Below are positions 17,346-60,006 of a DNA stretch of 64,000 bases, piece by piece. The notes under the pieces were generated by a model, which ran no database searches, was not told the DNA's origin, and saw only the letters and a list, made by a program, of their open reading frames with translations. The stretch lies in the IMG/VR virus record IMGVR_UViG_3300036828_000767, positions 53,516 through 117,515 of that record. One strand, given 5' to 3'. This stretch comes from a virus (taxonomy: Duplodnaviria; Heunggongvirae; Uroviricota; Caudoviricetes). Position numbers and translations under genes: made by a program. Each line of letters starts with the position of its first letter. Positions within the stretch are counted from its first letter, which is position 1.

Positions 17346-17573
17346 ATGATGCGAGGCCCCAGTTGCTGCGACAAAATACCGCCCGCTGACCACGTCCCAG
17401 GCGAACGACGCATCAAAGCCCACCGCTACGAAGACTGGGGCCTGGACTACCGGCACTGGATATGCGGCCACGACCACCTGTGCCGCATCTACGTGTGCAC
17501 CAGGGAGCTGCGGCCCGCCCAAGGCGGCGGGATATGCGGCCGGGAAAAAGCCGTCCGCGAGGAGGCGTCATGA
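17346..17573 (+). CDS. Cys-rich small protein
   Basis: RBS aaaggagg. Confidence 0.45.
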   Translation: MMRGPSCCDKIPPADHVPGERRIKAHRYEDWGLDYRHWICGHDHLCRIYVCTRELRPAQGGGICGREKAVREEAS

Positions 17574-18154
17574 ACTACAAGGCGAGAGCCAAATACGGCG
17601 GATATCCCTACCGTCCGGCAAGACCCAGCCCAACAAAGGTGGCATATATGTGCGACAACTGGCTGCCAGCCAAACCCACGCCCAGCATCGCCGGGAGCGT
17701 CCGCGCCACCGACATCGACCGGGACCAGACCGCCGACCGGCTGCGGGATAGTTACAGCCGCGGCGCTATCAGCAAGGCCGAGTACGACATTCGGCTGGAC
17801 ACGACGTTCGCCGCGGAAACCGTCGCCTCGTTGCAGTCTCTCGTCCGCGACCTGCCCGTCTACCGGCCCACGGTTTCCGTTCCGACGGTCACCGTGCAGC
17901 GGCGTCCGTCGTTCAAGCCTGCGGGGTGGCGGATAGCCGGCGCCCTGCTGCCCGCTGCCGTGCCCGCAGCGTTGCTGTGGTACGGCGCCACAAGCAACGG
18001 CTTCGCCGTATACCCGGGCACCGCGCAGGTGACAGCCGCCGCGGGTGGTGTAGTCACCGCCATCTTCTGGGCGATATGGTTCGCCCTGTTCACCTGCCTC
18101 TCAGTCGTCCCAGCCATCGGAAGGTACCGCCGGGAACTCGCCCGCCGGAACTGA
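17570..18154 (+). CDS. DUF1707 (SHOCT-like) domain membrane protein
   Basis: ATDIDRDQTADRLRDSYSRGAISKAEYDIRLD matches DUF1707 signature; C-terminal TM helices. Confidence 0.5.
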   Translation: MNYKARAKYGGYPYRPARPSPTKVAYMCDNWLPAKPTPSIAGSVRATDIDRDQTADRLRDSYSRGAISKAEYDIRLDTTFAAETVASLQSLVRDLPVYRPTVSVPTVTVQRRPSFKPAGWRIAGALLPAAVPAALLWYGATSNGFAVYPGTAQVTAAAGGVVTAIFWAIWFALFTCLSVVPAIGRYRRELARRN

Positions 18155-31218: not shown

Positions 31219-31569
31219 GTGCCTGTTAACGCAGAGGACGTCGCCGTAACGTTGCGCGCCGCCGGGATCGACGCTGTCACTACCACCGGTGACAGCGGCC
31301 CGGTGGTGACGTTGAACCCCGGCGACGCCACCACATTCCTTGACCTGCTCACCGGCGGCGGGCGGCAAGGTGAACACCACCAGATCATCGCCGCGTTCGC
31401 TAACACCTGCCCGCATTACGGCAACGACGACGACGAAAGCAACAACGAACAGTGCCGGTACTGCGGCTGGGCCGGCACCGACGACGAATGGCCGACCGCA
31501 GAAGAAGAACACAGCCACAACTGCCCGTGGGCCACAGCTAACAGATGGCATAGGAGACACCACCCATGA
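31219..31569 (+). CDS. hypothetical protein with Cys/His cluster
   Basis: GTG after RBS gaaggagacgg. Confidence 0.45.
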   Translation: MPVNAEDVAVTLRAAGIDAVTTTGDSGPVVTLNPGDATTFLDLLTGGGRQGEHHQIIAAFANTCPHYGNDDDESNNEQCRYCGWAGTDDEWPTAEEEHSHNCPWATANRWHRRHHP

Positions 31570-32009
31570 AACAGCCCCCAGTAATCACCTCGTCGGAGCC
31601 GCTGCCGTTTTTCGTGTACGGAACCCTCCGCCCAGGGTTCAGGCTCTACCGGGGCCTCGAAGCCCTCATCGAACGGCACGAACCAGCCCGGCTACCCGGG
31701 TTCGACCTGTTCATCTCCGGCTACCCGGTGGTCCGCGTATCTGACGGGCGAGGCCGGTATGTGACCGGGGACCTGCTGTGGATGACCGACCACGACGCGG
31801 CACTGCGGCGCTGCGACGGCATCGAGAACTACCGTCCGCCATACAACACCATGTACATCCGCGCCGCCGTGCTCGCCTTGCGGGGAGAGCAGCCCGGAAT
31901 CCCGGTGACTGCGTGGGTGTACATGGGCGGCCCGCGGATGGGCTTCTACAACCGGGTGGAATCCGGCGACTACCTGGACGTGGTACGAAGTGAGGAGGCG
32001 CGCGTATGA
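31566..32009 (+). CDS. gamma-glutamyl cyclotransferase-like (AIG2/GGCT fold) protein
   Basis: N-terminal FFVYGTLRPGF is the hallmark YGSL/YGTL motif of GGCT/AIG2; ATGA coupling. Confidence 0.6.
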   Translation: MKQPPVITSSEPLPFFVYGTLRPGFRLYRGLEALIERHEPARLPGFDLFISGYPVVRVSDGRGRYVTGDLLWMTDHDAALRRCDGIENYRPPYNTMYIRAAVLALRGEQPGIPVTAWVYMGGPRMGFYNRVESGDYLDVVRSEEARV

Positions 32010-32497
32010 GCCACCCGATCGGTGAAACCACCGATTCAAGGCTGAAACTCGCCGGCGGCACCCCCGCAAGGCTGGTGTCCAAACTGCTCCCCGGCCCGGC
32101 ACTGTCAGCGACCCTCACGGTGATGGCGCCGACACCCGTGTACCTCACCCAAAGTGTCGCTGGCAGGGAACGGCGGATGGAACTACGGGCGATGAACGGC
32201 GTCTACTACTGGGCCGAAGACTTCGGCACCTACCTGGCCACCGACACCGCCCGGGGGTCGCGGGAACTGCGGCCCCTGCTCCGCATGGAAGACGACCTGA
32301 ACCCGGCGTTCATCGTGTTCACCGACGACGGGGCGCCGTCCGCAACGATAATCGCCGGTTACATCGCGTCAGCGCCCGGCACGTGGCACGTCTACGAGAC
32401 AACCGGAATCCGGTTGCGGCCCACCAACAACCGGTCGCCGGAGAACGCGCTGCTCATTCTGGTGCTGACCAGAGAGTCAAGCTTCGGCCGCCGCTGA
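32006..32497 (+). CDS. hypothetical protein
   Basis: ATGA coupling to the GGCT-like gene. Confidence 0.5.
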   Translation: MSHPIGETTDSRLKLAGGTPARLVSKLLPGPALSATLTVMAPTPVYLTQSVAGRERRMELRAMNGVYYWAEDFGTYLATDTARGSRELRPLLRMEDDLNPAFIVFTDDGAPSATIIAGYIASAPGTWHVYETTGIRLRPTNNRSPENALLILVLTRESSFGRR

Positions 32498-32549
32498 ACT
32501 TTCACCCGGCTGGGCAACCCGCCCGCCGGCTCATCTAGGGAGGACGCCT

Positions 32550-33560
32550 ATGTCACTGCGCTTGCGGCGCGGTACCACCGCGCCGCGAACAACCGGGATG
32601 CGCGCAACGCCTGTCCCGGTAAACCCGGCCACCACAACGAAAGGAACCACCATGCCGGAAACCACCACCCTGACGCCGTTCATCGCACACCTCACCGACG
32701 GCCGCACCCTGCCCGCCGAGTTCGACACCTGGGGCTTCAAGATCGTCCGCGGCGACCTGACCACCTGGGACAACGGCGACGGCACCCGGGTCCAGTGGCC
32801 CGCCACCGGTGTCATGCACGACCGCAACGCGGTCGCCTCCGACGAGCTGTGCCCCAACTCGGAGATCGGCGGGTACGCCATCGCGAAGGACTTGCGTGGC
32901 GCCCGCGACGGCCAGTACGGGCACCAGACGATCCTGCTGGTCGCCTACAACCAGGCCGACGTTCTCGCCTCCGGCAACCACAAGGCGCGGGTGTCCAAGG
33001 CGCACGTCGTCGCGGTCATCCACGGCACCGACGTGTACAAGACCGCCGCTGGGGTGGACCTGTCCCGTGCGGACTTCAACGGCGCGGACCTCCGCGGCGC
33101 GACGTTCGACGGGTCGGACCTGTCCGGTGCGGCGCTGCGCGGTGCGCGGCTGGAGGGCGCCTCCCTCGTCGGGGCGGACCTGTCCGGGGCGAACGTGTCC
33201 CGCGCTGAGTTCAGCAGTGCGAACCTCGAAGGTGCCAACTTCACCGGCGCCGACGGGTTCCACGCCACGTTCACCGGCGCGAACCTCGCCGGTGCGGTGT
33301 TCACCGGCGCCAAGCTCGCTGGTGCCAGCCTCAGCAAGGCCACCGTCGCCGGGCTGAACGTGGACGGTGCCGTGCTGACCCGCGCCAACCTGAAGGACGC
33401 CGACGGGACTGTCCGCAACGCGGGCACGGCGAAGCTCGCCGGTGCCGTGTTCAGCGACAGCGGCCCGTTTCAGCCGCTGAGCGTCCCCGCTGGGCGCCGG
33501 GACATCCTCGACGCCCTCACCGGGTGCGGCGTGTACGCGGTGATGGAGGGCACCCGCTAA
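32550..33560 (+). CDS. pentapeptide-repeat protein (Qnr/MfpA-like right-handed beta-helix; possible DNA mimic)
   Basis: About 30 tandem A(D/N)LxGAxLxGA pentapeptides; RBS tagggagga; alternative start 32652. Confidence 0.6.
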   Translation: MSLRLRRGTTAPRTTGMRATPVPVNPATTTKGTTMPETTTLTPFIAHLTDGRTLPAEFDTWGFKIVRGDLTTWDNGDGTRVQWPATGVMHDRNAVASDELCPNSEIGGYAIAKDLRGARDGQYGHQTILLVAYNQADVLASGNHKARVSKAHVVAVIHGTDVYKTAAGVDLSRADFNGADLRGATFDGSDLSGAALRGARLEGASLVGADLSGANVSRAEFSSANLEGANFTGADGFHATFTGANLAGAVFTGAKLAGASLSKATVAGLNVDGAVLTRANLKDADGTVRNAGTAKLAGAVFSDSGPFQPLSVPAGRRDILDALTGCGVYAVMEGTR

Positions 33561-33635
33561 TCCCGTCCCCTAACCGGCTGAGCCCCACCCCCCTCCCGGG
33601 TGGGGCTCAGCCATTCCCCCGGAAGGAGGAAACAG

Positions 33636-33899
33636 ATGAGGCTCATCTCTTGGAGCCCTGAGGCGCGGGCTGTGCGACAGCAACGGCGGCTCCGCCGGGA
33701 ACACGTCGCCAACACGCCGAACATGAGCGTCAAGGTCACCATCGAACGCCGGCAAGGCAGCCTGGTCACGTCGCAGATCAGCGGCGTCGGGGTGGACTTG
33801 GCGGCTGCGCTGTGGAACGCGCGAGGCCGGGCGGGAACCCTGTTCCGGGAAGTCGGCGAGCACCTCGCCCGGTTCCCCGCCGAAGAAACAGACCAATGA
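33636..33899 (+). CDS. hypothetical protein
   Basis: Strong RBS ggaaggaggaaacag. Confidence 0.45.
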   Translation: MRLISWSPEARAVRQQRRLRREHVANTPNMSVKVTIERRQGSLVTSQISGVGVDLAAALWNARGRAGTLFREVGEHLARFPAEETDQ

Positions 33900-34195
33900 G
33901 CGGCGACAACCACACCGCGCTAGTCGTCACACCGCAGACGGGCTACCCGCAGATCAGGTGGGCTGATAACGGCGCTGGCAGCGGTGAATGCGGCTGGGTT
34001 GGGGTCTGCTCAATGTGGGTGTTTCAGATTTGGCGGCCCTACCCGGAGCGGCAGTGGGAGCTGATCTGCAACCTGCCAGGTTCCCGGTCCAAGGCGAACG
34101 ACAAAGACCTGGACGAGCTGAAAGGCATCGCGGACCGGTGGCTGAGATGGTTCCTCGACGACCTTTACAACACCAGCCGGAAGTTCGGAAGCTGA
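33896..34195 (+). CDS. hypothetical protein
   Basis: ATGA coupling. Confidence 0.45.
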   Translation: MSGDNHTALVVTPQTGYPQIRWADNGAGSGECGWVGVCSMWVFQIWRPYPERQWELICNLPGSRSKANDKDLDELKGIADRWLRWFLDDLYNTSRKFGS

Positions 34196-34351
34196 ACGCC
34201 CTATGGGGGTGGAAACAGGCAGACAAAAAAGGCGGCGTCCATTGGGTGCGGGGCACCCTCGAAGAAACCTACAACCGGGTAGCCGGAGACGGCGGCGAGT
34301 GGATTCTCGTGGCGTCCGTACCTAAAGAGGCGTTTAAGGAGGTGATGGAAA

Positions 34352-34834
34352 ATGTCAAAAGGGCACATGAAACCGAGGGTTCATTTCCTGTATGACGCCT
34401 GCCCGTTCGTCCAGTCCGAGCCGGGTTACCGGCTGGATATCTGGTGCGCCTGCCATGACCATTTCGGTTCCGACATAGCCGCAGCATTGACCCACATTCC
34501 GGTTGATGCGCTGCCAAAGCCGCCGAGTGAGATCGTGCAGGCGCTGGCGAAGTCGGTTACGGGGGCTCGTAGCTGGGTGACACAGGCACAACGGTCAGTG
34601 GAATGGCTGCTTGACAACCAGCCGCGAGACACCACCACTGCCGTGCAACTGGAAAACGTCTACGGCAACTTGCAACGCGCCGCGTGGGTGCTGCACGACC
34701 CCGAAGCCGACGAACACCGGGCAAACGAACCCCAGCCACACACGACCACTCACACGCAGTACTGCCTTGCCTGCGGCAAGGACCACACAGAAGCCTCAGC
34801 CGAGAGGCTCAACCAGGAAAGCGAGGGACGCTAA
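34352..34834 (+). CDS. hypothetical protein
   Basis: RBS aaggagg upstream; alternative ATG 34341 is out of frame. Confidence 0.45.
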   Translation: MSKGHMKPRVHFLYDACPFVQSEPGYRLDIWCACHDHFGSDIAAALTHIPVDALPKPPSEIVQALAKSVTGARSWVTQAQRSVEWLLDNQPRDTTTAVQLENVYGNLQRAAWVLHDPEADEHRANEPQPHTTTHTQYCLACGKDHTEASAERLNQESEGR

Positions 34835-35805
34835 TGCCACGCACGACCATTCACCACGAACCCATCCCCGCCACGCTTTGCGGCTGCCCATCCTGCCAGA
34901 AGAAAGCCGGGTACCCCGGTATCACCTACCCCAGCACCAGCGCCTTCACCCAGGTCGGGGGGCATTACGGAACCCGGCAGTGGGAGGCCGGTGGCCGCGG
35001 CCCCCTGTACCTGGGAATGGAACTGGAACTGTCCAACGCCGGCGCGTCCGCGTGGCGGCACGCCTGCTCCTACCTTGGCCGGGGGACGCTCGCCGAAGTG
35101 AAACCAGACGGCGGGATGATGGAGCTGACCAGCCACCCGATGTCACCGGCGTACTTCATGGGCCACTACCCGTGGCGGATGCTCGGCGAACTCCGCGACC
35201 GTAACGTCTACGCGGAGCCGGACCGGGGCGGCATCCACGTCCACGTCAACAAAACCGCCTTCGACGGCGCCGTGCACATCTTCAACTGGATGCAGTTCTT
35301 CTACGCCAACCCGTGGGAAATGACCGCCCTCGGCGGCAGGACCCAGCAGGGCACCCGGGGGGGGCGCCACTTCCAGACTGTTCCGTCGCGGGATGCACTG
35401 ATGCGGCTTGCCGAGCAGGTTGCCGCGCAGGTGGAACTTCACAACGCCAGGCACTGGGCCGCGACACACGCCGTACAGCGCGACGGGCGGCGTGTGTTCC
35501 GGGCCGCTGACCGGGCCAGGATCAGGGCCGCTGAAGCACGCCAGGCCCTCCAGCCCTACGGTCGGTGGGGTGAAGCCGCCGCGATCAACGTCCGCCGCCA
35601 CACGGAAACGTTCGAAGTGCGGTTCCCCGGGGCGGCCATCGAACCGTGGGTGGTGAAGTCGCGGCTGCAACTGGTCGCCGCCGCTGCGGAGTTCACCCGC
35701 ACCCTCCAAAACGGCGACGACCAGAACCTCCGGTTCCCGTTGTTCGCCGACTGGGCCGCCGCGAACAGGTACCCCGAACTGTCCGCGGCGGTGGCGACGC
35801 TGTGA
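34834..35805 (+). CDS. amidoligase (Amidoligase_2 family) copy 1
   Basis: YLGMELELSN...GGMMELTSHPMS...GIHVHVN motifs shared with paralog 37348..38670; TAATG coupling. Confidence 0.55.
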   Translation: MPRTTIHHEPIPATLCGCPSCQKKAGYPGITYPSTSAFTQVGGHYGTRQWEAGGRGPLYLGMELELSNAGASAWRHACSYLGRGTLAEVKPDGGMMELTSHPMSPAYFMGHYPWRMLGELRDRNVYAEPDRGGIHVHVNKTAFDGAVHIFNWMQFFYANPWEMTALGGRTQQGTRGGRHFQTVPSRDALMRLAEQVAAQVELHNARHWAATHAVQRDGRRVFRAADRARIRAAEARQALQPYGRWGEAAAINVRRHTETFEVRFPGAAIEPWVVKSRLQLVAAAAEFTRTLQNGDDQNLRFPLFADWAAANRYPELSAAVATL

Positions 35806-36254
35806 CCAGCGACAAACCGGTCTGCTGGGGCAAGCGGCATTCGTTCAAGGTCGAACGGACACAAGCGGGTTCGGTGTCGGTTGCCGAGTACCTCGACGAC
35901 GACGCTGTCGCTTTCGCCAGGTGTTACAGCCCCACGCCGCAGGAATGGAACGACTGGTTCGCCCATGCGTGGCAGGCGGGGCAGGATTTCGAAGTCCGAC
36001 AGCGGGACGAGTACGACACCGAGGCGGAGGAACCAGCGTGCCCTGCCTGCGAAGGCGAATGCACGTGCAGCGACACGGTGAAGGCCGCCCGTGCACGGTT
36101 CGCCCCTGACGGTGAAGGCGCGGTGACCCGGAAGTCACAGGTCACGTCCACGTCGTATCCGCGTACCGCCCCTGCTCCTGTTGTCACCGCCCCCTTTCCC
36201 GGACTTGCTGTTCCGGGCACTGAGAACGGCGCTGACGCCGCGGAAATGATATAG
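35802..36254 (+). CDS. small Cys-cluster protein (CPACEGECTC)
   Basis: GTGA coupling. Confidence 0.4.
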   Translation: MTSDKPVCWGKRHSFKVERTQAGSVSVAEYLDDDAVAFARCYSPTPQEWNDWFAHAWQAGQDFEVRQRDEYDTEAEEPACPACEGECTCSDTVKAARARFAPDGEGAVTRKSQVTSTSYPRTAPAPVVTAPFPGLAVPGTENGADAAEMI

Positions 36255-36341
36255 GCCCACCATTCCTGGAACGCCACTGGGTGGTGGGGCGGAACCTACT
36301 ACCCAGTGGCGCGTCCAACTCTGCAAGAAAGGACAGCCTAG

Positions 36342-37136
36342 ATGTGCCTACTGACGTACCTGAGACCAGGTGCTCAGCCCAACGCCAAGCATCTCGCGGC
36401 CGGCGCCGTCTCGAACCGCGACGGCCACGGATACGCCATCGCCGACGGCGGCACACTTTTCGTCCGCAAGTCGCTTTCGCCCGGGACAGCCATCAGCGAA
36501 TTCGTGCAACTCCGCGAAGAACACCCAGACGGCCCGGCGATCTTCCACTCCCGGCTGGGAACAAGCGGCCTCAGAACCACCTACAACGTTCACCCGTTTT
36601 TCGTCGGCAACGACAAACTCACCGTCGTCGCGCACAACGGCATCCTGTTCACACCGCCGCGCAGCGACCCCCGTTGCGACACGCGCATGTTCGCCGAAGG
36701 CATGCTGCCAGCGACATTCGGTGACCTGGACCATTACCGGCTGCGCACCACCCTCGAAAACTGGCTTGGCCGCACGAACAAGATAGCCATTCTGACCGTC
36801 AACCCGGAGTTCGAAGATTCGGCGTACCTGTTCAACGCCGAATCCGGCCGGTGGATCGACGACGGCACCTGGCATTCCAACAGCAGCTACCTGCGGGCCT
36901 CCGACTGGTACCCCCACTGGCTCGAAGACCTCGACGAGAACACCGGCGTCCTGTGCGCGGTGTGCCTGAAACGGGGACACATCGACCCGGACACGATGAT
37001 CTGCGGCAACTGCCACTACTGCAACGAATGCTTCGAACCCGATACAGCCTGCATGTGCTCCCCCAGCGAAAGATACGACCGGCGCCCGGGGGGGTCAGGC
37101 AGCCAACTGGCGATCACTGCCGGGCCGTCGTCATGA
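36342..37136 (+). CDS. class-II glutamine amidotransferase-like Ntn hydrolase copy 1
   Basis: Begins Met-Cys (MCLLTY..), the N-terminal nucleophile arrangement of GATase-II/Ntn; RBS caagaaaggacagcc. Confidence 0.55.
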   Translation: MCLLTYLRPGAQPNAKHLAAGAVSNRDGHGYAIADGGTLFVRKSLSPGTAISEFVQLREEHPDGPAIFHSRLGTSGLRTTYNVHPFFVGNDKLTVVAHNGILFTPPRSDPRCDTRMFAEGMLPATFGDLDHYRLRTTLENWLGRTNKIAILTVNPEFEDSAYLFNAESGRWIDDGTWHSNSSYLRASDWYPHWLEDLDENTGVLCAVCLKRGHIDPDTMICGNCHYCNECFEPDTACMCSPSERYDRRPGGSGSQLAITAGPSS

Positions 37137-37348
37137 CCACATACACGATCAAGGTGGTCCACGGCCCCCGGTCAAGGCCCCTGACCGGACCCGCTGTCCC
37201 GCCTGGCGGTTCGCAAGAACATGAACACCTCGAAGCCGACCGCGCACGAGAAGGCATCCAGGTGTTCATCGACGACCTGTTCCGGTTCCACGGCAACGGC
37301 GTCAAGAGCATCACCATCACCGCCGAACGTGAGGAGGGAGGTGAATAA
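37133..37348 (+). CDS. small hypothetical protein (71 aa)
   Basis: ATGA coupling both sides. Confidence 0.4.
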   Translation: MTTYTIKVVHGPRSRPLTGPAVPPGGSQEHEHLEADRAREGIQVFIDDLFRFHGNGVKSITITAEREEGGE

Positions 37349-38670
37349 TGCCGTTCAACATTCACGGTGAAGAATACGACGACGGTTGCAACTGTGTAGG
37401 CTGCCGCCGGATTGTCGCCAACCGCGACTACGCCGACGGGGCGGTCTATTACAGCCGCGACGAAGCCGACTCCGCGAACCGGAGCTGGCGGCTGAGGCGC
37501 GGGGAAAGGCCGGCTTCGAGATACACGCCGCACGCATACCAGCACGTGCCGACGGTAACCCTGCCAGAAACCGTCACGGTCGGCATCACCCACGAAGGGG
37601 GGTACTGGACAGAAGCCAGCGTGTACGGCCAGCCATGGGATGAAGGCACCATCAGCGAATACATCACGATGATGGACGCCCGTAGCCGTGGCCAGTCATG
37701 GGGCGCGTACCGGGTCGAGCCGGAACTCACCCCGGTGCAGCGGATAATCGCCCAGTACCCGCGCAGCGATCCACGGAAAAACTACACGTGGACCCCGCCG
37801 CGCTGGGTAATGCACGGTGACGGCCCGTCGTATTACGGCATGGAAATTGAGATCAAGTGCCGCAACTCCCAGGTGATGCAGCACGCCCAGGCTGTCATCG
37901 GCGCGCATGGTCATTTGAAGAACGATTCGTCGATCGGCGGCGGCTTCGAACTGGTCACGCATCCGATGTCTTTCTCATGGGCGATGGCGAATTTCCCCTG
38001 GGACCTGCTGCCGCAGCTCACCGAAATGGGCTGCACGATCGACCCGGCGGTGAACGGCATCCACGTCCACGTCAACCGGGACGGCTTCACCTCCGGCGCG
38101 CACATGCTGCGGTGGCTGAAGTTCATCTACCGCAACAGCAGCCAGGTGACACGGATCGCCCGAAGGGAAACAGCAAGGTACGGCTCGTTCAGCGACACCG
38201 TTCAGGCGGCGCATTACGCGCACATCATGGCGGAAAAGGCCAAAGCGCGGCTGAAAGAAGCTGAAGCCCGGTTCGCTGAGTTTGCGTCGTATGAGAACGA
38301 GGTCGCCTACGCGGAAGCGAACCGTGACTTGCGAGCCCTGATTTCCGGCGACCGCACCAGGGTGAGCCGGTACCAGGCGATCAACACCCGGCCCCCGGAC
38401 ACGCTGGAAATGCGTATGTTCGCGTCAACGCTGGCGGTCATGGAAGCGCAGGCGACGTTGCAGATGGCAGCGGCGTCCGTTGAATACACCCGTGGTATCC
38501 GCGCCGCGCAGGTCTGCAAGGGGGCCTGGGGGTGGATTGCGTTTTCCGCATGGTTGCGGGACAACGGGACCACCTATCCGGCGCTGTTGCAGGCGAACCG
38601 GTACGCGCGGATGCCAGCCGCGCCGACCGCAACCTACACCCTGTCCGAAACGCCACGAAGGGGGCTTTGA
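37348..38670 (+). CDS. amidoligase (Amidoligase_2 family) copy 2
   Basis: YYGMEIEIKC...GFELVTHPMS...GIHVHVNRDGF; RBS gaggagggaggtg. Confidence 0.55.
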   Translation: MPFNIHGEEYDDGCNCVGCRRIVANRDYADGAVYYSRDEADSANRSWRLRRGERPASRYTPHAYQHVPTVTLPETVTVGITHEGGYWTEASVYGQPWDEGTISEYITMMDARSRGQSWGAYRVEPELTPVQRIIAQYPRSDPRKNYTWTPPRWVMHGDGPSYYGMEIEIKCRNSQVMQHAQAVIGAHGHLKNDSSIGGGFELVTHPMSFSWAMANFPWDLLPQLTEMGCTIDPAVNGIHVHVNRDGFTSGAHMLRWLKFIYRNSSQVTRIARRETARYGSFSDTVQAAHYAHIMAEKAKARLKEAEARFAEFASYENEVAYAEANRDLRALISGDRTRVSRYQAINTRPPDTLEMRMFASTLAVMEAQATLQMAAASVEYTRGIRAAQVCKGAWGWIAFSAWLRDNGTTYPALLQANRYARMPAAPTATYTLSETPRRGL

Positions 38671-38671
38671 C

Positions 38672-39496
38672 ATGTGCCTGTTGTGCGTTCTCCCGGCGGG
38701 TGTTATGCCTGACCCGGTAGAGCTGGAACTGTCCGCGGCGAACAATCCTGACGGGTTCGGTTACGCCATCATCACCGCCCGGGGGAACCTGCTTATCCGC
38801 CGGGGCATGGACGCCGACCATATCATTTCCGCTTTCTTGAAGGACCGGAAAAAGCACCTGGGGCCAGCGATATGGCATTCCCGTATCGGAACTTCCGGCA
38901 CCAAAACGTCGATGAACTGTCACCCGTTTATTGTCGGGCGGGACCACCGGACAGTCCTGGCACATAACGGGACACTGTTCCGGCCGCCACATAATGAGCC
39001 GCGTTCCGACACGAACATTTTCGCCGCGGAAGTGATGCCGGTGCATTTCCGGGCGGTGGACAGGCCAGCGGTGCGGCTCCGGCTGGAACGTCAGCTCGGC
39101 GGCAACAAGGTCGCGTTGCTGACCACAAACCGGCGGTACCGGCACCCGTTTTACATCTTCAACGAGCACCTCGGCGAGTGGACCGAGATGGGCGCGTGGA
39201 TGTCGAACAGTTCTTACCGGGTTGCCCGCCGCCGGTACGGCGGCAACAGCAACTACCGGTACCAGTACCGGGACGGCAACGGCTGGCGGTCGTACGACGG
39301 CGGGAAGTCCTGGGAACTGGTCCCAGAGGGCGGCTTCTACACCGCCCCCACGAAGGGCACCCGCTACGGCTGGTGCCGGTGGTGTAAGACGCAGCAGGTT
39401 GTGGACCCCTACACGAACATTTGCACGAACTGCCACGTCTGCGGGGAGTGCGGCGAATGGCGGCGGAAGTGCGAATGCAAACTGGTGCCGGCGTGA
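38672..39496 (+). CDS. class-II glutamine amidotransferase-like Ntn hydrolase copy 2
   Basis: Begins MCLLCVLP; clear paralog of 36342..37136 (H(S/N)R(L/I)GTSG, HNG(I/T)LF, MSNSSY). Confidence 0.55.
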   Translation: MCLLCVLPAGVMPDPVELELSAANNPDGFGYAIITARGNLLIRRGMDADHIISAFLKDRKKHLGPAIWHSRIGTSGTKTSMNCHPFIVGRDHRTVLAHNGTLFRPPHNEPRSDTNIFAAEVMPVHFRAVDRPAVRLRLERQLGGNKVALLTTNRRYRHPFYIFNEHLGEWTEMGAWMSNSSYRVARRRYGGNSNYRYQYRDGNGWRSYDGGKSWELVPEGGFYTAPTKGTRYGWCRWCKTQQVVDPYTNICTNCHVCGECGEWRRKCECKLVPA

Positions 39497-40296
39497 AACT
39501 TCTGCGCCCGGTAGACGGGCCACCGTGTCCTGAATGCCCGTACCGCAGGGACGTCGAGCCGGGTATCTGGCCGGAGTCGGTGTACGGGCGCCTGGCCGGT
39601 TACGACGGCAGCCTGACACAACAGCAGGCCACCGGCACCAAGAGCTGCATGTTCTGCATCCGCAAGTCAAGCCGGCTGTGCGGCGGCTGGATAGCTGCGC
39701 ATCCGCTGCCCATTAACTTCGCCTTGCAGATGCAGGCGCCCAGCGGCACGCTGGATATTGATGCGATCCGGGCGTATCGTCCCGGTGTGCCGGTGTTCGA
39801 CACTGGTGCGGCAGCAGTCATCCACGGCTTGAAGAGAGGTTCAATGCTTACCGGCGGAACGTTGCTGGACCGTAACCGCCGCGACGACCGCTGCGACTGC
39901 ACGCACCGCCGGTTCTCCCACGACGACGACGGCTGCGTGTGGTGCGACTGCCTGATGTTCAAACTCGAAGGACCCAGAACGCCGCGGCGGTCATCGGCTG
40001 ACGTGGACGCGCTAGCCGAAGAAATCGTGGAAGCCGTCAAGGAATGGGCGAAAGGTGACGGGGCGAAACTGGACCAGGCCGCCAAAATCCTTTCCGTCAA
40101 CCCGGTACTGGGGAAACTGCCGTCAGGCCACGACCACGCATCAGGGTGGCGTTGCGGTATGTGCGACGACTGCCCCGTGTACCGGCGAGACGAAGACGCC
40201 AATTTCTGTAAGTGTGGCCATTCGGTTATCAACCACGCCTTCGAACGGGTAAGCGAAATAAGGAGTCGCCATGATAAGCAAGAACAGCCCGCCTGA
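39493..40296 (+). CDS. Cys-rich protein (multiple CxxC / CxC)
   Basis: GTGA coupling; CPECPYRR, CMFCIRK, CDCTHRRF, CVWCDC, CGMCDDCP, CKCGH. Confidence 0.45.
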   Translation: MKLLRPVDGPPCPECPYRRDVEPGIWPESVYGRLAGYDGSLTQQQATGTKSCMFCIRKSSRLCGGWIAAHPLPINFALQMQAPSGTLDIDAIRAYRPGVPVFDTGAAAVIHGLKRGSMLTGGTLLDRNRRDDRCDCTHRRFSHDDDGCVWCDCLMFKLEGPRTPRRSSADVDALAEEIVEAVKEWAKGDGAKLDQAAKILSVNPVLGKLPSGHDHASGWRCGMCDDCPVYRRDEDANFCKCGHSVINHAFERVSEIRSRHDKQEQPA

Positions 40297-47077: not shown

Positions 47078-47374
47078 ATGACCGACCACCAACTGCCCTC
47101 CTACATTTTCGAAAGCCTGCCCACCTCGGACATCCGCCGCGTCCTCGGCGTCCGCGACAGCGAACCGCTCCTGTTTTGCCACAAGCACGGCATCTGGTCC
47201 CCCGGTCCCTGCCCCGGCTGTCAGACCCCTTGGCCAGAATCTCCTCAGGGCCTCCCGTGCGGTGACTGCGTGCGGTGCTTCCACGGCAACTCGTGCAAGC
47301 ACGCATGCGAGGCCCCAATCTGCCATCCCGAGCAAGATTGCCTGCCCGAGGCAGGAAAGGGGCACCATGTCTGA
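47078..47374 (+). CDS. Cys-rich small protein
   Basis: Many Cys/His; ORF-track ORF. Confidence 0.45.
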   Translation: MTDHQLPSYIFESLPTSDIRRVLGVRDSEPLLFCHKHGIWSPGPCPGCQTPWPESPQGLPCGDCVRCFHGNSCKHACEAPICHPEQDCLPEAGKGHHV

Positions 47375-48110
47375 CCTGGCCAAGGCCCTGGTGAAGTTCC
47401 AGCTTGACCTTCCGAACATCGCCAAAGACCTCACCGCCGACGCCGGCAACCGGGGCACCTACCAGTACGCCGGTCTCGACACAGTGTCGGCGAAGATACT
47501 CCCCCGCCTCGCAGCGTGCGGGCTGGCCTTCTCCGCTGTCACACGGTACGACGAGGAAGGCAAGTTCCTCCTCGAATACGCCCTGCTGCACGAAAGCGGC
47601 CAGTTCCGGCAAGGAGTGTTCCCGTTGCCGGTGACAGCGAACCCGCAGCAGATGGGCTCTTGGATAACTTACGCCCGGCGGTACAGCCTCCTCATGGTCA
47701 CCGGCGTGCACCCTGGCGGCGAAGACGACGATGCCGCGGCCACTCTTTCCCTGGACACGACCACCCCGACCGGCAACTTTCGCGGAAGTCATGGCGTGGC
47801 ACGACAACCAGATGCGCCTGCACGCCCGGCTCCGGTTGCTGACCGGGTGATCGAGGAACCGGAAACGGGGCATGTGAACGAGAAGGCGCAGGTGCTGGCC
47901 AGCCTCGCACATGAGCTGAACAAGCAAGGCTGCGACGTGGGTGAGCTGAAGACCCAGGTGTACGACATAGCCAAGGCCGAGAGCCTCTTGAAGGGCCTGG
48001 TGATCAACCCGTTCACCGGCACAATGGTGCAGTTGTCCACGGTGATAACCCAGGCCCGTAAGGAAGCCGAGGCTCGCGTCATCATCGCCGAAGGTGACCC
48101 CGAGCAATGA
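47367..48110 (+). CDS. erf: ERF-family single-strand annealing protein
   Basis: GTYQYAGLDTVSAKILPRLAACGLAF matches the ERF core (Y.YA.L..V...L...GL); RBS gaaaggggcacc. Confidence 0.55.
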   Translation: MSDLAKALVKFQLDLPNIAKDLTADAGNRGTYQYAGLDTVSAKILPRLAACGLAFSAVTRYDEEGKFLLEYALLHESGQFRQGVFPLPVTANPQQMGSWITYARRYSLLMVTGVHPGGEDDDAAATLSLDTTTPTGNFRGSHGVARQPDAPARPAPVADRVIEEPETGHVNEKAQVLASLAHELNKQGCDVGELKTQVYDIAKAESLLKGLVINPFTGTMVQLSTVITQARKEAEARVIIAEGDPEQ

Positions 48111-48394
48111 CCAGGCGCATGTACCGGTACGAGGTGCCAGTGGATGACGCCAGTCACGTCTTCTACTTGTCCAGCCCGCCGATGGCCGCAGCGACCACCG
48201 TGCCCGGTTTCGTGAGCTACGTGGTCGAGTTCTGGGCTGAGCACGAGGACCATGCCACGGCCACCCACCACGTCTATCAGGTGTTCGGCACCGGGCACGA
48301 GCTTCCCCCCAACGCCAGGTGGGCTGCTACCTGTCCGCGCACCGACAGTGGCTTGGTGTTCCACCTTTACGAACTGCTCGGCAACGAACAGTGA
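48107..48394 (+). CDS. hypothetical protein
   Basis: ATGA coupling. Confidence 0.45.
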   Translation: MTRRMYRYEVPVDDASHVFYLSSPPMAAATTVPGFVSYVVEFWAEHEDHATATHHVYQVFGTGHELPPNARWAATCPRTDSGLVFHLYELLGNEQ

Positions 48395-48576
48395 CTGCCT
48401 GGGTGGTCAGGTACTGGGCCAGGTGGAAGTGGACCACCAGCGCCTGTCTGTTCGTCGTCGCCCTAAGCGTCTTTTCCTTCTTCGTGCTAGGCATGCCCTG
48501 GTACCGGGCCATGGTTCCCGTCGTCATAGTGCTGGTTGTGATTGGTGACGGGCTGTGGGAACGGTGGCGCAGGTGA
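48391..48576 (+). CDS. small membrane protein
   Basis: GTGA coupling; two TM helices. Confidence 0.35.
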   Translation: MTAWVVRYWARWKWTTSACLFVVALSVFSFFVLGMPWYRAMVPVVIVLVVIGDGLWERWRR

Positions 48577-48833
48577 ACGTCGGCGAGTGGTTCCGTATCC
48601 TGTCCGGTGAACACCAGGGCCGCTGGCACATGGTCGGGTGGATGGGCCACGCGGTCAAGACTGAATCGTTGGGAGTGAACCACACGGGCTGGCTCGGGTT
48701 TGCCATTTGTCCCCGCTGTCATGCCATGGTGATCACCGAGACCCGGGTCTTCGACAACCCTTACGGCGACCAGCGGTGGGCGCATGAGGACTGGCACGCA
48801 GCCACCGACTACCCGCACCCGGACACACCGTGA
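48573..48833 (+). CDS. hypothetical protein
   Basis: GTGA coupling. Confidence 0.35.
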   Translation: MNVGEWFRILSGEHQGRWHMVGWMGHAVKTESLGVNHTGWLGFAICPRCHAMVITETRVFDNPYGDQRWAHEDWHAATDYPHPDTP

Positions 48834-49813
48834 CCTACCTCGATGATGTTGTCGGGCAGGCCCGCGCCTGGGATAACGCCCGCACCAGAAGCCAGCAGCA
48901 AGAAGTTGGCTGGTCCGGTCTGCATCATTGCCGCGCCTGGATGGGGTTCATCATGGCCCGGGAATGGGCCACCGAGGACACCGACACGTGGCGGGCCATC
49001 GCCGGCACCGCGCTGCACGAATGGCTCCAGGCGGTCCGTTACAAGGCCGCACCGAGGGACCACATCATCGTCTTCGAGGAAGAAGTCGAGTACGGCGGCA
49101 TCCCGGGGCACGTGGACGAGGTGAACTACACCCTCGGCGAAATCACCGACTACAAGTTTCCAAGCCTGAAGTCGGCACGGATGTGGCGTGACCCTGAGGT
49201 TCAGGAGGAACGCCTCACCCAGCCGCAAGGGTACGCGGCGGCGATCGTCGGCACCCACCAGTGGCGTGCCCACGCACCTGACCCTGACCACGCCACGGTG
49301 CGGTTGCTTATCTGCCCGGTGGACGGCACCTTTGACGACTGGTTCACCATCGAACGACCTTTCGACAGGTCCGTCGCCGACGGTGCGCTCCTGCGGTACC
49401 ACGAAGTTGAGGACATGCAGGCACGTGGTGAGCCGCTGCCGAAAGACATGCCGTTCCACTTCTGCGAACGGTTCTGCGAGTTCTTCACCGCATGCCGCGG
49501 CGACGAGAAAGAACCAACCGCCCTGCCAGAGATCACCGACGCGTTCATCGCCGCGGCCATCGAACGGTACGGGAGGGCAAGCGAAGCTATCCACGCCGGG
49601 TACAAGGTGCGTGACGAGCTGCGGCCGGTCCTGGAAGGGTTGCGTGGCCGCGCCAGAGGGTTCAAGGTGTTCATGTCACGGCCGAAGGCACGTGACAAGT
49701 GGGTCATCGACGAGGACGCCGTCAGGGAGGTGTTCGCGGCCCGTGGCCTGGAAATGCCAATGAAGCAAGCCGATGGCAAGAAGCCGTCGCTTTACGTGAT
49801 GCGTGAAAAGTGA
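48830..49813 (+). CDS. Cas4/RecB-like PD-(D/E)XK exonuclease with Cys cluster
   Basis: HVDEV...EITDYKF (D..E.K) plus HHCRAW near N-terminus and FCERFCEFFTAC near C-terminus (4-Cys cluster); usual partner of ERF. Confidence 0.55.
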   Translation: MTYLDDVVGQARAWDNARTRSQQQEVGWSGLHHCRAWMGFIMAREWATEDTDTWRAIAGTALHEWLQAVRYKAAPRDHIIVFEEEVEYGGIPGHVDEVNYTLGEITDYKFPSLKSARMWRDPEVQEERLTQPQGYAAAIVGTHQWRAHAPDPDHATVRLLICPVDGTFDDWFTIERPFDRSVADGALLRYHEVEDMQARGEPLPKDMPFHFCERFCEFFTACRGDEKEPTALPEITDAFIAAAIERYGRASEAIHAGYKVRDELRPVLEGLRGRARGFKVFMSRPKARDKWVIDEDAVREVFAARGLEMPMKQADGKKPSLYVMREK

Positions 49814-54639: not shown

Positions 54640-54969
54640 ATGACCAAGCCGCTGATGCGCTCATTCCACCGCCTATGGGACCTGCCGGAGTGGATGCAGG
54701 AAGGAACCTGCGTCTTCGAAGGCGACCCTGATTGGTGGTTCCCTGAGAAAGGCGGCCCGGTGGCCATCCTGGAATCACGCCAGGCGGTCCGCATCTGCGA
54801 CCGCTGCCCAGTCCGCACCGAATGCCTCACTTACGCAGACGAACACCATGAACGAGGCATCTGGGGCGGGCTCACCGAACAGCAACGAACCTTGCGCCGC
54901 CGGAACATCCGGCGGCGGCATTCAGACACCGAAAGGCTCCACCTATGTTCGCTCTCGTCATCGTCTTGA
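54640..54969 (+). CDS. WhiB-family transcription factor
   Basis: Four Cys (C..C......C.C....C pattern with CDRCPVRTEC) and GIWGG turn motif. Confidence 0.6.
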   Translation: MTKPLMRSFHRLWDLPEWMQEGTCVFEGDPDWWFPEKGGPVAILESRQAVRICDRCPVRTECLTYADEHHERGIWGGLTEQQRTLRRRNIRRRHSDTERLHLCSLSSSS

Positions 54970-55901
54970 TCCTCGGCCTCATCGTGGTCGCGGGTATCGC
55001 CTACGCGGTCTTCGGTCCCAAACCGGTGCCAGCCACCGACAGATACGGCCACGACGGACGGCCCGCCACCCGGTGGGTCGGCGCCGTCGTCGCGGGTGTC
55101 GCGTTCATCCTCGGCGCCGCGGTCCTGTTCGGCAGCATGTACACACCGGTCGGCACCTCCGACGTCGCTGTCGTCACCTCGTTCGGCCACACCGACGGCG
55201 ACCTCCAGTCCGGCGTCCACCTGACCGCGCCGTGGCAGGACACCACCACCTGGGACCACTCCGTGCAGCGGACCAGCTTCGAAGGCAAGAACTGCCTCCA
55301 GGTGCGTATCTTCGGCGGGCAGACCGCATGCCTCCCCACGGTGATCCAGTGGCAGGCCGTCCCAGCCGCTGCGGACAGCCAGTTCAAGCGGTTCCGCACG
55401 TTCCTGCGGATGCAGGCCGCATACATGTCCGCCTCCACCATCGTCGGCTTCTTCAACAACTCGTTCGAAACGTTCAACCCGATCACCACCGCCTCCCTCC
55501 AGGCCAACGGCGGCAAGGGCGGCACCACTGTCACGGCCCTGGTGAAGCAGGTCGCCGGCAGCATGCGAACGTCGTACGCCGGGCAGGTGAACATTGAGCG
55601 GATCACTGTCGGGACGCCGCAGTACAGCCAGTACGTGGACGGCCAGCTCGGCAAGGTCGTCGGTGCGAAGGTCGGCCTGGAAACCGCAACGATCAACGCG
55701 CAGACCGCCGTTCAGGAAGCCAACGCGGCGAAGAACCTTCAGAGCGGCGGTCACTTGTCGCCGCTGGTGGTGCTCCAGAACTGTGTTGACACCGTTAAGG
55801 CCCTGGCGCAGGCCGGGGAGTCCACGGCCCCAACCTTCAATTGCAGCAACCTGTTCGGCGGCAGCGGCATCAGCGCCAGCGTCCTGCTCGGCGGCAAGTA
55901 G
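54945..55901 (+). CDS. SPFH/band-7 domain membrane protein
   Basis: N-terminal TM then DVAVVTSFGHTDGDLQSGVHLTAPWQ resembling the SPFH core; 25-nt overlap with whiB-like gene. Confidence 0.5.
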   Translation: MFALVIVLILGLIVVAGIAYAVFGPKPVPATDRYGHDGRPATRWVGAVVAGVAFILGAAVLFGSMYTPVGTSDVAVVTSFGHTDGDLQSGVHLTAPWQDTTTWDHSVQRTSFEGKNCLQVRIFGGQTACLPTVIQWQAVPAAADSQFKRFRTFLRMQAAYMSASTIVGFFNNSFETFNPITTASLQANGGKGGTTVTALVKQVAGSMRTSYAGQVNIERITVGTPQYSQYVDGQLGKVVGAKVGLETATINAQTAVQEANAAKNLQSGGHLSPLVVLQNCVDTVKALAQAGESTAPTFNCSNLFGGSGISASVLLGGK

Positions 55902-58106: not shown

Positions 58107-58583
58107 ATGTCCAGGCGTTTTCTGTACGCCCTCGTCGTTGTATTCGTAGCGTTTTCTTCCCTGGTTGCGCCGGTGTTTCTTACCGCGGCGACCGCCGCCG
58201 CGGCTGTCCGTGGCCAGGTTCCCCCTCCCGGTGGCATCCCGCACTGGGTCGCCGCAGCCGGGGCCGTGTTTTTCGCCGGGTCGCTGCTCGTCACCATCAA
58301 GCTGCTGCGTGACCGGCGGCGTGACCGTGACCTGTCCAGCCGCGGTGACCCGTGGCCCGGGTGGGCGCACGCGGACGGCAAAACCGCTCCCGAAGCAATC
58401 ACAAGCCCCGACCTTCCCGCAGTGAAAGACCTTGAACCTGAGCCTGTCCTGACCGGCGTGGTGGTGACGGACTGGGCGGTCGCCATGACTGCCCCCGCAC
58501 CGCCGATCGTTGCGACGCCGACCGCACCCGAAGTCGCTGAACAGTGGATCAGGCAGGAGCTGTCCCCGGCGGCCCAGCAATGA
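58107..58583 (+). CDS. membrane protein
   Basis: RBS gaggatatca; two TM helices. Confidence 0.45.
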   Translation: MSRRFLYALVVVFVAFSSLVAPVFLTAATAAAAVRGQVPPPGGIPHWVAAAGAVFFAGSLLVTIKLLRDRRRDRDLSSRGDPWPGWAHADGKTAPEAITSPDLPAVKDLEPEPVLTGVVVTDWAVAMTAPAPPIVATPTAPEVAEQWIRQELSPAAQQ

Positions 58584-59389
58584 GGCCCTGGCTGGCGGTC
58601 ATCCCGTCCGCGGGTGGCCTGGTGGTCAGCCTCGCGGCGCTCACAACCAGCACCCCTTCGCTGCTCGCCCAGGCTGCTTACGCGCAGTCGTTCACCACCG
58701 TGACACCGGTGCAGGCTGACCCGTGGACACGGCCTGCCGTGCAGCAGGAAGTCCGCGCCGAGGCCGCGAACAGCTTCATGGTCCGCGAGGGGGCCTTGCG
58801 GGCACGGGTCGCGTTGCTTGCCCGGAGGGAAGCGGCTCAGGATGAAGCCGCCCGGGACGAAGCCGCCCGGGACGAAGCGGTGCAGGACCAGCGGCAGGCT
58901 GCACGCGCTGCTGCTGCGCTGGCCGCACGTCAGGCCGCTGCTGCTACTAGTGCGCCTGCTGCGCCGCCGGCCGGTTCCACCACCGCCGCGCCGGGCTGCC
59001 CGATGCACGCGCTGGGTGCGATGGGCCGCGTCGATGAAGGCGTGGACTACGCAGGCGCCGGCCCGGTGTACGCCCTCGGTTCCGGTGTCGTCACCGAGGT
59101 GAACGGCGCCTCCGGGTGGCCTGGTGGCATGTTCATCGCCTACACCTACGGCGGCAGCTACGTGTACGTCGCCGAAGACGTCACCGCGGCGGTGTCCGTC
59201 GGGGAGCATGTCTCATCGGGAACCGTCATCGGTAACGCCTACGGCGGCGGTTCCGGGATCGAGACCGGGTGGGCGATGCCGCCAGGGACGATTCCCGAGG
59301 CCGCGGCGTACAACCATTACACCGACGGTGTGCCCACGCAGGAGGGTTACAACTTCCAGTCGGTTCTCCGTGGCATGGGCTGCGGCTGA
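58580..59389 (+). CDS. secreted coiled-coil protein with degenerate LytM/M23-like C-terminal domain
   Basis: Signal peptide; EAAQDEAARDEA repeats; C-terminus resembles M23 but lacks the catalytic His residues. Confidence 0.45.
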   Translation: MRPWLAVIPSAGGLVVSLAALTTSTPSLLAQAAYAQSFTTVTPVQADPWTRPAVQQEVRAEAANSFMVREGALRARVALLARREAAQDEAARDEAARDEAVQDQRQAARAAAALAARQAAAATSAPAAPPAGSTTAAPGCPMHALGAMGRVDEGVDYAGAGPVYALGSGVVTEVNGASGWPGGMFIAYTYGGSYVYVAEDVTAAVSVGEHVSSGTVIGNAYGGGSGIETGWAMPPGTIPEAAAYNHYTDGVPTQEGYNFQSVLRGMGCG

Positions 59390-60006
59390 TGCGCGCGCTG
59401 AGGTGGTTCGCCGTTCTCCCGTCCGCCGGTGGGCTCGCTGTGAGCCTGATGGCGTTGACCGCTGGTCTTCCTGCGGCGTCCGCGGTGGACGCTATCGGGG
59501 TGCGGTCGCCGGTGACGGTTGCTGCTGGCCCGGTAACACCCAGCCTGGCCACTGAACACCAGCGTTACCTGAGCAGGCTGGGCACACTGGAACGCCGCGC
59601 TGAACGCCGCGCCGACCAGGAAGCCGCGCAGGACCGGCGGGCCGAAGCCGCCCAGGACCAGCGTCAGGCCGCCCGCCAGGCAGCAAGGCGCGCAGCAGCA
59701 GCAGCCAGACGCGCAGCCGCTGCCGTTGTTCCGAGCGCCGCTCCTTCTGGACAGGTCGGTACCGGTGGGATGGGTGGTTTCGAAGCCTGTGTCATCGCTG
59801 CTGAGAGTGGCGGTAACCCTCGGGCATACAACTCCTCCAGTGGTGCCAGTGGGCTATTCGGATTTTTGCTCACAACTTGGGACAGTCTCAATCTTGGCTA
59901 CCCCGGTGGAGCGTCCACTGCGCCTGCGACTGTCCAAGAACAGGGATTCGCCATCGAGTACGCCAGGGCAGGGGTCGCACCCTGGGCTGCCTATGATGGT
60001 TGCTAG
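59389..60006 (+). CDS. secreted Rpf-like transglycosylase (resuscitation-promoting-factor-type lysozyme-like domain)
   Basis: Signal peptide; coiled-coil; C-terminus FEACVIAAESGGNPRAYNSSSGASGLFGF..TW matches the Rpf core (CESGGNW..N..GL.Q....TW). Confidence 0.5.
   Translation: MRALRWFAVLPSAGGLAVSLMALTAGLPAASAVDAIGVRSPVTVAAGPVTPSLATEHQRYLSRLGTLERRAERRADQEAAQDRRAEAAQDQRQAARQAARRAAAAARRAAAAVVPSAAPSGQVGTGGMGGFEACVIAAESGGNPRAYNSSSGASGLFGFLLTTWDSLNLGYPGGASTAPATVQEQGFAIEYARAGVAPWAAYDGC

Follow-up and report, generated by a model that had tools for sequence, protein, structure and literature searches.

A 64,000-nucleotide stretch of the IMG/VR virus record IMGVR_UViG_3300036828_000767 (positions 53,516 to 117,515 of the record; hereafter, the window) carries two diverged copies of a known mobile-element enzyme module, which has been predicted computationally and is biochemically uncharacterised. 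Each copy consists of a gene for an Amidoligase_2-type ligase followed by a gene for a class-II glutamine amidotransferase (GAT-II, or GAT) whose product starts with Met-Cys; the copies are referred to as ligase A with GAT-A and ligase B with GAT-B. The first-pass annotation of the window had placed two such pairs in tandem, at 34834-37136 and 37348-39496, and independent gene calls agree with these positions, all on the + strand. Both pairs are present; however, the first is not contiguous, because a 150-aa open reading frame (ORF) lies inside it, and a 71-aa ORF separates the pairs. The protein identities proposed there also held in profile checks, which returned PF12224 for ligase B, the GAT-II domains of GlmS and PurF for the GAT family profile and PF06094 for a gamma-glutamyl(amine) cyclotransferase (GGACT) in the same region, with ligase A identified through BLASTP. 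The association of amidoligase, GAT-II and gamma-glutamylcyclotransferase (GGCT) to which the annotation referred has indeed been predicted computationally in the literature (Iyer 2009, according to the relevant passages of PMC10580990, PMC5498523 and PMC6256558).

Ligases and amidotransferases of the two pairs

Ligase B matches the Pfam family PF12224 (Amidoligase_2) (E 1.9e-6; 28.4 bits, cut-off 22). For ligase A, which lacks a Pfam match of its own, the assignment is based on a match to phrog_22302 (1.7e-7) and on 29% identity with ligase B across 251 residues (BLASTP, 5e-30). Both ligases retain the family motifs GxExE, Glu, HxH, Asn and ExR, and alignments of 22 and 46 sequences, both paralogues included, showed no variation at G164, E166, E168, E201, H239, H241, N346, E354 and R356 (numbered as in ligase B).

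In the AlphaFold2 (AF2) model of ligase B, the catalytic domain reached a predicted local distance difference test score (pLDDT) of >90, while the N-terminal region (residues 1-145) was poorly modelled. A Foldseek search of the Protein Data Bank (PDB) with this model gave YbdK (1r8g) as the best neighbour (E 1.7e-4, probability 1.0), followed by 1tt4, plant glutamate-cysteine ligase (GCL, 2gwc), Dop, PafA and glutamine synthetase (GS). The TM-scores were low, about 0.3, so these structural neighbours support membership of the superfamily only. The ligase sequence profile had no match in the PDB, and the fold call rests on the AF2 model and the Foldseek search of ligase B. Based on these results, both ligases are predicted to be carboxylate-amine ligases of the GS/gamma-glutamylcysteine synthetase (GCS) fold, which would form amide bonds at the expense of ATP.

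GAT-A and GAT-B are 39% identical (3e-57) and match phrog_25883 at 7.4e-47 and 5.3e-36, respectively. In Pfam, GAT-B matches GATase_4 (2.5e-5, 23.8 bits, cut-off 23) and GAT-A scores 15.3 bits, which is below the cut-off; the GlmS/PurF models of NCBIfam were matched below threshold only. A profile built from 28 sequences of the GAT family matched the GAT-II domain of GlmS (1xff, 3.6e-7) and PurF (2.6e-6) in the PDB, and the hhalign comparison of the family with Escherichia coli GlmS gave a probability of 95.7% and an E-value of 1e-8. The start codon is followed by a Cys codon in all 205-208 GAT homologues aligned from residue 1, and this Cys would become exposed after removal of the initiator Met. 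Moreover, Cys2, Arg71, Thr74, Asn99-Gly100, Asp113 and eight C-terminal Cys residues are ~100% conserved in 205 homologues, and R71, T74 and N99-G100, each 100% conserved, align with Arg73, Thr76 and Asn98-Gly99 of GlmS.

In the best 150 of 3454 clusters of GAT homologues, the GAT domain begins at residue 1-3 (residue 9 in one), and no fusion of ligase length was found among them. The sole extra part of GAT-A and GAT-B is a C-terminal tail with eight Cys residues, and neither carries a fused synthase domain. Judging from their sequences, both are putative stand-alone class-II GAT/N-terminal nucleophile (Ntn) amidohydrolases with a zinc-type 8-Cys module.

Conservation and duplication of the pair

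The gene neighbourhood was compared in 159 loci, comprising close relatives, the mycobacteriophage Marvin, 80 IMG/VR contigs and 73 loci of actinobacterial genomes. The loci were picked by similarity to ligase B, so the sample is biased towards Actinobacteria; those from IMG/VR were found with a profile, as the single-protein scan of IMG/VR gave none. The ligase and GAT copies, 220 and 210 in number, are all encoded on the same strand. A same-strand GAT gene is located downstream of the ligase gene in 211 of 220 cases, with a gap of at most 100 nt in 204 of these 211 and an overlap in 134, and ligases without a downstream GAT are mostly found at contig ends. A gene inserted into the ligase-GAT junction was seen only in the first pair of the window clade and in one Nocardia locus. 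As only the ligase and the GAT stay together across the 159 loci, the functional unit is the two-gene pair.

The larger, seven-gene cluster of the first-pass annotation did not survive this comparison. Genes for the pentapeptide-repeat protein, the DUF6283 protein, the 71-aa, 150-aa and 160-aa ORFs and the small Cys-rich proteins stand beside the pair in the window clade only, in which synteny extends over the entire region; ~155 other loci had none of them. The pentapeptide, DUF6283 and further small genes are considered to lie outside the system, as neighbours in the array; membership of the 150-aa ORF is uncertain. The tight link to GGACT that had been suggested proved equally limited, as GGACT occurs near the pair in only one further independent lineage (locus L007) and not in the other ~150 loci.

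Three related contigs, whose proteins are 55-85% identical, retain both pairs and their order. Compared with these relatives, all genes of the cluster, with the two small inserted ORFs among them, have a ratio of non-synonymous to synonymous substitution rates (dN/dS) of 0.18-0.50 (ligase A, 0.33-0.50; GAT-B, 0.18-0.20; 71-aa ORF, 0.18-0.29). Both copies of both enzymes are thus intact and under purifying selection, and the duplication is old, since the paralogues share just 29% (ligase) and 39% (GAT) identity.

The duplication had been described as unusual. This holds among phage contigs, in which a second pair within 6 kb was found in 0 of 80 IMG/VR loci, but not in the integrated elements of Nocardia, where tandem pairs are the norm and triples occur. 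Two or more tandem pairs are present in 56 of the 159 loci, nearly all of them chromosomal loci of Nocardia, some with three pairs. Among the Nocardia genomes, L087 and L095 have three ligase-GAT pairs each, and three ligases with two detected GATs were recorded in L114, L124 and L131; L160 is grouped with these loci. The ligases of these Nocardia and other actinobacterial integrated elements are ~40% identical to ligase B, and each is followed by a GAT. The locus of Nocardia sp. NBC_00881 adjoins genes for an integrase (fragments), DUF2637, HTH_17, DUF2786 and Prim-Pol, and because of this company it is considered an integrated mobile element. Other Nocardia loci carry DUF4192.

In neighbour-joining trees (without bootstrap), the Nocardia copies at position 1 and position 2 formed separate clades, both for the ligase and for the GAT. 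GAT-A and GAT-B of the window clade grouped with L006-L008 in a clade of 11 leaves, and ligase B joined the same contigs. As ligase and GAT split into matching clades, the pair has been duplicated as a unit at least twice independently, once in the Nocardia elements and once in the window clade, the two events being separate in the trees. Duplication is a habit of the family and is not peculiar to the window. Repeated duplication as a unit, with retention of the copies, suggests that a ligase depends on a GAT of its own and that specificity differs between the two pairs.

The two enzymes also carry accessory modules that match. Nocardia ligases have long N-terminal arrays of CxxC motifs resembling zinc ribbons, and their partner GATs have the 8-Cys module. 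In L007, the ligase N-terminus contains a small 'VGDxV' domain twice, and this domain recurs in the C-terminal extension of the GAT (561 aa; BLASTP 4e-7). Such matching suggests a common macromolecular target or mutual docking of the enzymes.

The same two genes in the same order are found in a cultured phage, Marvin of mycobacteriophage cluster S, as gp105 and gp106; in Marvin and other cluster S phages the pair bears the annotation 'glutamine amidotransferase domain protein'. The gp106 region shares 39% identity with GAT-A across 239 residues (tblastn, 5e-47) and encodes the same Cys-rich C-terminal tail, and the gp105 region shares ~31% identity with ligase B (5e-22), the PHROG families being 22302 and 25883. 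Unlike the window, with its two diverged pairs, junction insert and nearby GGACT, Marvin has a single pair at the genome end and no GGACT in the 7-kb locus examined, and the C-terminal extension of gp105 differs from that of the window ligases.

Most of the viral loci with a single pair (L007-L086) look like freshwater actinophages. Their conserved neighbours include a WhiB-like regulator downstream and sigma-factor-like, metallophosphoesterase-like, HNH, DUF1599, primase-like and terminase-like genes.

Predicted chemistry of the module

By analogy with characterised enzymes, we tentatively read the ligase and the GAT as a writer/eraser pair for a gamma-glutamyl-amine bond on a target, a reading that leads the alternatives at somewhat less than an even chance. 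The ligase would activate the gamma-carboxylate of L-glutamate as an acyl phosphate and couple the activated glutamate to a primary amine of the target, yielding a gamma-glutamyl-amine (N5-substituted glutamine). The Ntn enzyme would bind the glutamine-like moiety and hydrolyse the same bond, and GGACT, where present, would release the group as 5-oxoproline. The pair would write and erase, or transiently protect, a gamma-glutamyl mark, and the two pairs of the window would serve two amine substrates or two steps.

The same logic is known from EgtA/EgtC (ergothioneine), PuuA/PuuD (putrescine) and BtrJ/BtrG (butirosin), in which an ATP-dependent ligase forms a gamma-glutamyl amide and a GAT-type hydrolase or a GGCT-fold enzyme removes it; the fold of EgtA is that of GCS, and EgtC is one of the stand-alone class-II GATs. 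In contrast to the window pair, which shows no membership of these systems at the sequence level, they are metabolic, have known intermediates and no zinc-type modules, and do not belong to mobile elements. Because both enzymes bear the same kind of accessory module in every lineage, a macromolecular or complex target common to the two is more probable than turnover of a free metabolite.

The strongest alternative is that the two proteins form a split glutamine-dependent amidotransferase, in which the GAT would produce ammonia from L-glutamine for a carboxylate activated by the ligase (as an acyl phosphate), converting R-COOH to R-CONH2 in the manner of MurT/GatD or asparagine synthetase B. 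The near-universal adjacency of the genes with their frequent start/stop overlaps, the 1:1 stoichiometry of two genes that invariably duplicate together and whose trees show corresponding clades, and the invariance of the glutamine-binding (Arg) and oxyanion-hole (Asn-Gly) residues all agree with such an enzyme, and the shared accessory modules could serve docking. However, the known class-II GAT amidotransferases have their glutaminase fused in cis, whereas no natural ligase-GAT fusion occurred in the 150 best GAT clusters and the best Pfam matches are of the stand-alone GATase_4 type. Moreover, GGACT would be left without a role, both where it is coupled to the ligase in L007 and in the window. 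We also know of no GS/GCS-fold ligase that accepts channelled ammonia, which counts against this alternative, and we consider it rather unlikely, if a serious competitor.

The writer/eraser reading is ranked above the split enzyme because stand-alone GATs of the EgtC type are gamma-glutamyl amidohydrolases, while in true class-II amidotransferases, to our knowledge, the GAT domain is fused in cis to the synthase domain. The lack of fusions among the 150 best of 3454 GAT clusters favours it in the same way, as does the fact that GS-fold ligases take free ammonia or amines directly. A further reason is GGACT, which uses gamma-glutamyl-amines as substrates: its gene is translationally coupled to that of the ligase in L007 and shares the gene array of the pairs in the window.

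Several points weigh against it. The proposed chemistry is drawn from family analogy. A writer and an eraser that are adjacent and co-translated imply a futile cycle unless there is an intervening step or a temporal or spatial separation, and translational coupling and duplication as a unit fit a stoichiometric heteromeric enzyme equally well. GGACT is near the pair in just two of the independent lineages sampled. Finally, D113, which lies in an S-D-T motif and is 100% conserved, was matched to Asp123 of GlmS, as the putative alpha-amino-binding Asp, by motif only, the profile alignments ending at HNG.

A modification of the cell envelope, namely of the peptidoglycan stem peptide, that excludes superinfecting phages would fit either chemistry. 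It has been proposed for a podovirus cassette (in the passages of PMC5498523, PMC6256558, PMC10580990 and PMC11318856 that cite Iyer 2009 and Hardies 2013), and the module is carried by phages and integrated elements, in which exclusion functions are common. The podoviruses phiEco32, LUZ24, PaP3, tf, UFV-P2, RIO-1 and PSA-HP1 carry Amidoligase_2, a class-II GAT and GGCT/AIG2 in their early-gene region (PMC3890496, PMC5498523, PMC6256558) within a seven-gene 'peptide-bond / peptidoglycan modification' cassette, a prediction of Iyer 2009 that is cited as uncharacterised in the corresponding passages of PMC3890496, PMC5498523, PMC6256558, PMC10580990 and PMC11706807. The window shares Amidoligase_2, GAT-II and GGCT with this cassette. 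However, the podovirus cassette adds COOH-NH2_lig (PF14395) and ATP-grasp ligases and has a GAT of ~486 aa, whereas the window duplicates the ligase-GAT pair instead; neither COOH-NH2_lig nor an ATP-grasp ligase had a Pfam match among the cluster ORFs or the scanned window ORFs of at least 200 aa. Full-text literature searches found no biochemical or genetic test of these modules or of the envelope proposal, and no link of the pair to cell-wall genes was seen in the loci. We regard an envelope function as improbable.

A step in a pathway of DNA-base hypermodification is very unlikely. In some viral contigs, amidoligase and/or GATase genes are reported to adjoin the thymidine hypermodification genes for 5-hydroxymethyluracil (5-hmU) kinase and amino-acid:DNA transferase (PMC8989533, PMC13229309), and zinc-ribbon modules could bind nucleic acid. 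However, the kinase, the amino-acid:DNA transferase, dUMP hydroxymethylase and TET/JBP are absent from the window ORFs scanned, no such genes occur among the conserved neighbour families of the 159 loci, and the pair is also found in Nocardia integrated elements beside integrase and Prim-Pol.

Pup-like protein tagging would make the 71-aa protein, which ends in GGE, a tag or carrier that ligase B joins via the gamma-carboxylate of its C-terminal Glu and that GAT-B processes or removes. The 71-aa gene is translationally coupled directly upstream of ligase B (TAATG overlap with the ligase B start, ATGA overlap with the GAT-A stop) and is under purifying selection, and the Foldseek search with ligase B returned PafA and Dop. 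The PafA/Dop-Pup system shares the ligase superfamily of ligase B, combines deamidation or hydrolysis with ligation at a Glu gamma-carboxylate and occurs in Actinobacteria; however, Dop is a paralogue of PafA and not an Ntn hydrolase, and YbdK/GCS2 are structurally nearer to ligase B than PafA is. The 71-aa family has only five known members, all in the window clade, of which four end in GGE, though the preceding residues vary, and one in EGD. In the AF2 model (pLDDT 69), the protein is folded as beta-beta-alpha-beta, ferredoxin/ACT-like, thus neither beta-grasp nor disordered, and no beta-grasp match was found. The pocket residues of the GATs suggest a free glutamine-like ligand. Upstream ORFs ending in G[EQD] were found in 2 of ~470 cases in other loci, against a background of 1%; one of these two, a 92-aa ORF of L009 (5090-5368) that ends in GLNGQ and shares an ATGA overlap with the ligase, is consistent with chance. 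The clade-specific and predictedly folded 71-aa protein thus does not place the window among tagging systems, and we give this explanation even less credence than the preceding one.

That one pair is a decaying, non-functional recent duplicate, as the short ligase A with its lost N-terminal region and score below the Pfam threshold and the gene inserted before GAT-A might suggest, is rejected, because the paralogues are too diverged to be recent, keep their catalytic invariants and are both maintained in three relatives at the dN/dS values given above.

Gene array around the pairs and significance of the module

The contig measures at least 117 kb, of which the window covers 64 kb. The window has a G + C content of 64%, and nearly all of its plausible genes are on the + strand. 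No tRNA genes were found in the 64 kb, and no capsid, tail or terminase genes were recognised within it. Identical DNA is present on a 47.6-kb Logan contig, where independent gene calls gave the same ORFs as the first-pass annotation, and the ligase B protein is also recorded from a 117.5-kb JGI contig. A close relative of the phage is deposited as a viral operational taxonomic unit (OTU). The megablast search of the whole region against INPHARED (50,697 phage records) gave no match, and the source phage is without a close cultured relative. The window most likely corresponds to the early/middle part of the genome of a large actinophage that has not been cultured, i.e., a phage of high-GC Gram-positive hosts.

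The genes around the pairs are listed in Table 1. Most of the junctions within the array are stop/start overlaps of 1 or 4 nt, and the start codon of GAT-B lies 1 nt past the stop codon of ligase B. The consensus scan of 30-44 kb revealed no + strand promoter or terminator, hence no operon limits. The whole stretch reads as one long co-directional phage gene array, and for this reason proximity within it says little about shared function.

Table 1. Coordinates of the ligase-GAT pairs and surrounding genes in the window.
Feature	Position	Strand	Remarks
GGACT / AIG2-like gamma-glutamyl(amine) cyclotransferase	31566-32009	+	PF06094, phrog_2520
163-aa ORF	32006-32497	+	
Pentapeptide-repeat protein	32652-33560 (longest ORF from 32550)	+	PF00805, 6.3e-29
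Three small ORFs	33636-34395	+	
160-aa ORF	34352-34834	+	TAATG-coupled to ligase A
Ligase A, 323 aa	34834-35805	+	phrog_22302; paralogue of ligase B
150-aa ORF between ligase A and GAT-A	35802-36254	+	CPxCxGxCxC motif
GAT-A, 264 aa	36342-37136	+	phrog_25883; Met-Cys start
71-aa ORF between GAT-A and ligase B	37133-37348	+	C-terminus ...EREEGGE
Ligase B, 440 aa	37348-38670	+	PF12224 Amidoligase_2
GAT-B, 274 aa	38672-39496	+	phrog_25883, GATase_4; Met-Cys start
267-aa Cys-rich protein, N-terminal DUF6283 domain	39493-40296	+	PF19800, 5.4e-18; phrog_18249
Further ORFs downstream of the DUF6283 gene	up to 43244		

The GGACT assignment is unambiguous, with matches to PF06094 (6.8e-16, 59.4 bits against a cut-off of 22.8) and phrog_2520 (4.8e-8), and the residues Y18-G19-T20-L21-R22 and E87 are invariant in the homologues of the window, L003 and L007. 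In L007, located at 4144-8862 of a 181-kb IMG/VR contig, the GGACT gene is ATGA-coupled to that of a 778-aa ligase. GGACT is possibly an accessory enzyme of the module, an occasional third partner that is not conserved.

The 150-aa ORF has a GTGA overlap with ligase A, is kept in L003 and L005 (dN/dS ~0.23) and had no match in Pfam, PHROG, PADLOC or NCBIfam; it may be a subunit that is accessory to the first pair, or an insert without relation to it. The 160-aa ORF is present in the window phage only and not in the three relatives. Its match to the PADLOC model 'E2' (E 0.0027, 15.7 bits) was judged to be due to chance, and none of the enzymes matched a PADLOC defence model. The pentapeptide-repeat protein shows sub-threshold similarity in NCBIfam to DNA-mimic proteins of the Qnr/MfpA type and may have an independent anti-gyrase or anti-restriction function. 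The 267-aa multi-Cys protein is coupled to GAT-B through a GTGA overlap, as first annotated, and proved to carry DUF6283; the coupling was seen in the window clade only, and no literature on the DUF6283 family was found.

Elsewhere in the window, genes were recognised for an RlaP nucleotidyltransferase (1631-2419; PF10127, 1.7e-33), a transposase-like protein (6650-7747; phrog_4285), a DUF1707/SHOCT-like protein (17462-18154), an ERF recombinase and an exonuclease (47262-49813), an SPFH/Band-7 protein (54945-55901) and M23-peptidase and transglycosylase-like domains (58544-60006; sub-threshold).

The module is widespread, as the GAT family comprises 3454 clusters at 50% identity and relatives of the ligase occur in 486 viral-contig and at least 572 genome stretches. 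Its carriers are phages and integrated elements, and the prediction of its function has stood since 2009. With Marvin, a cultured phage that has this pair was already available, so the window in itself opens no new route to testing the prediction. What the comparison offers are useful regularities at the family level, namely the strict two-gene unit, its repeated independent duplication, the matched accessory modules and the occasional GGACT partner, which guide the choice of the proteins to co-express and of the bond chemistries to try first. Should a host macromolecule prove to be its target, the module would represent a new type of takeover or exclusion function of mobile elements.

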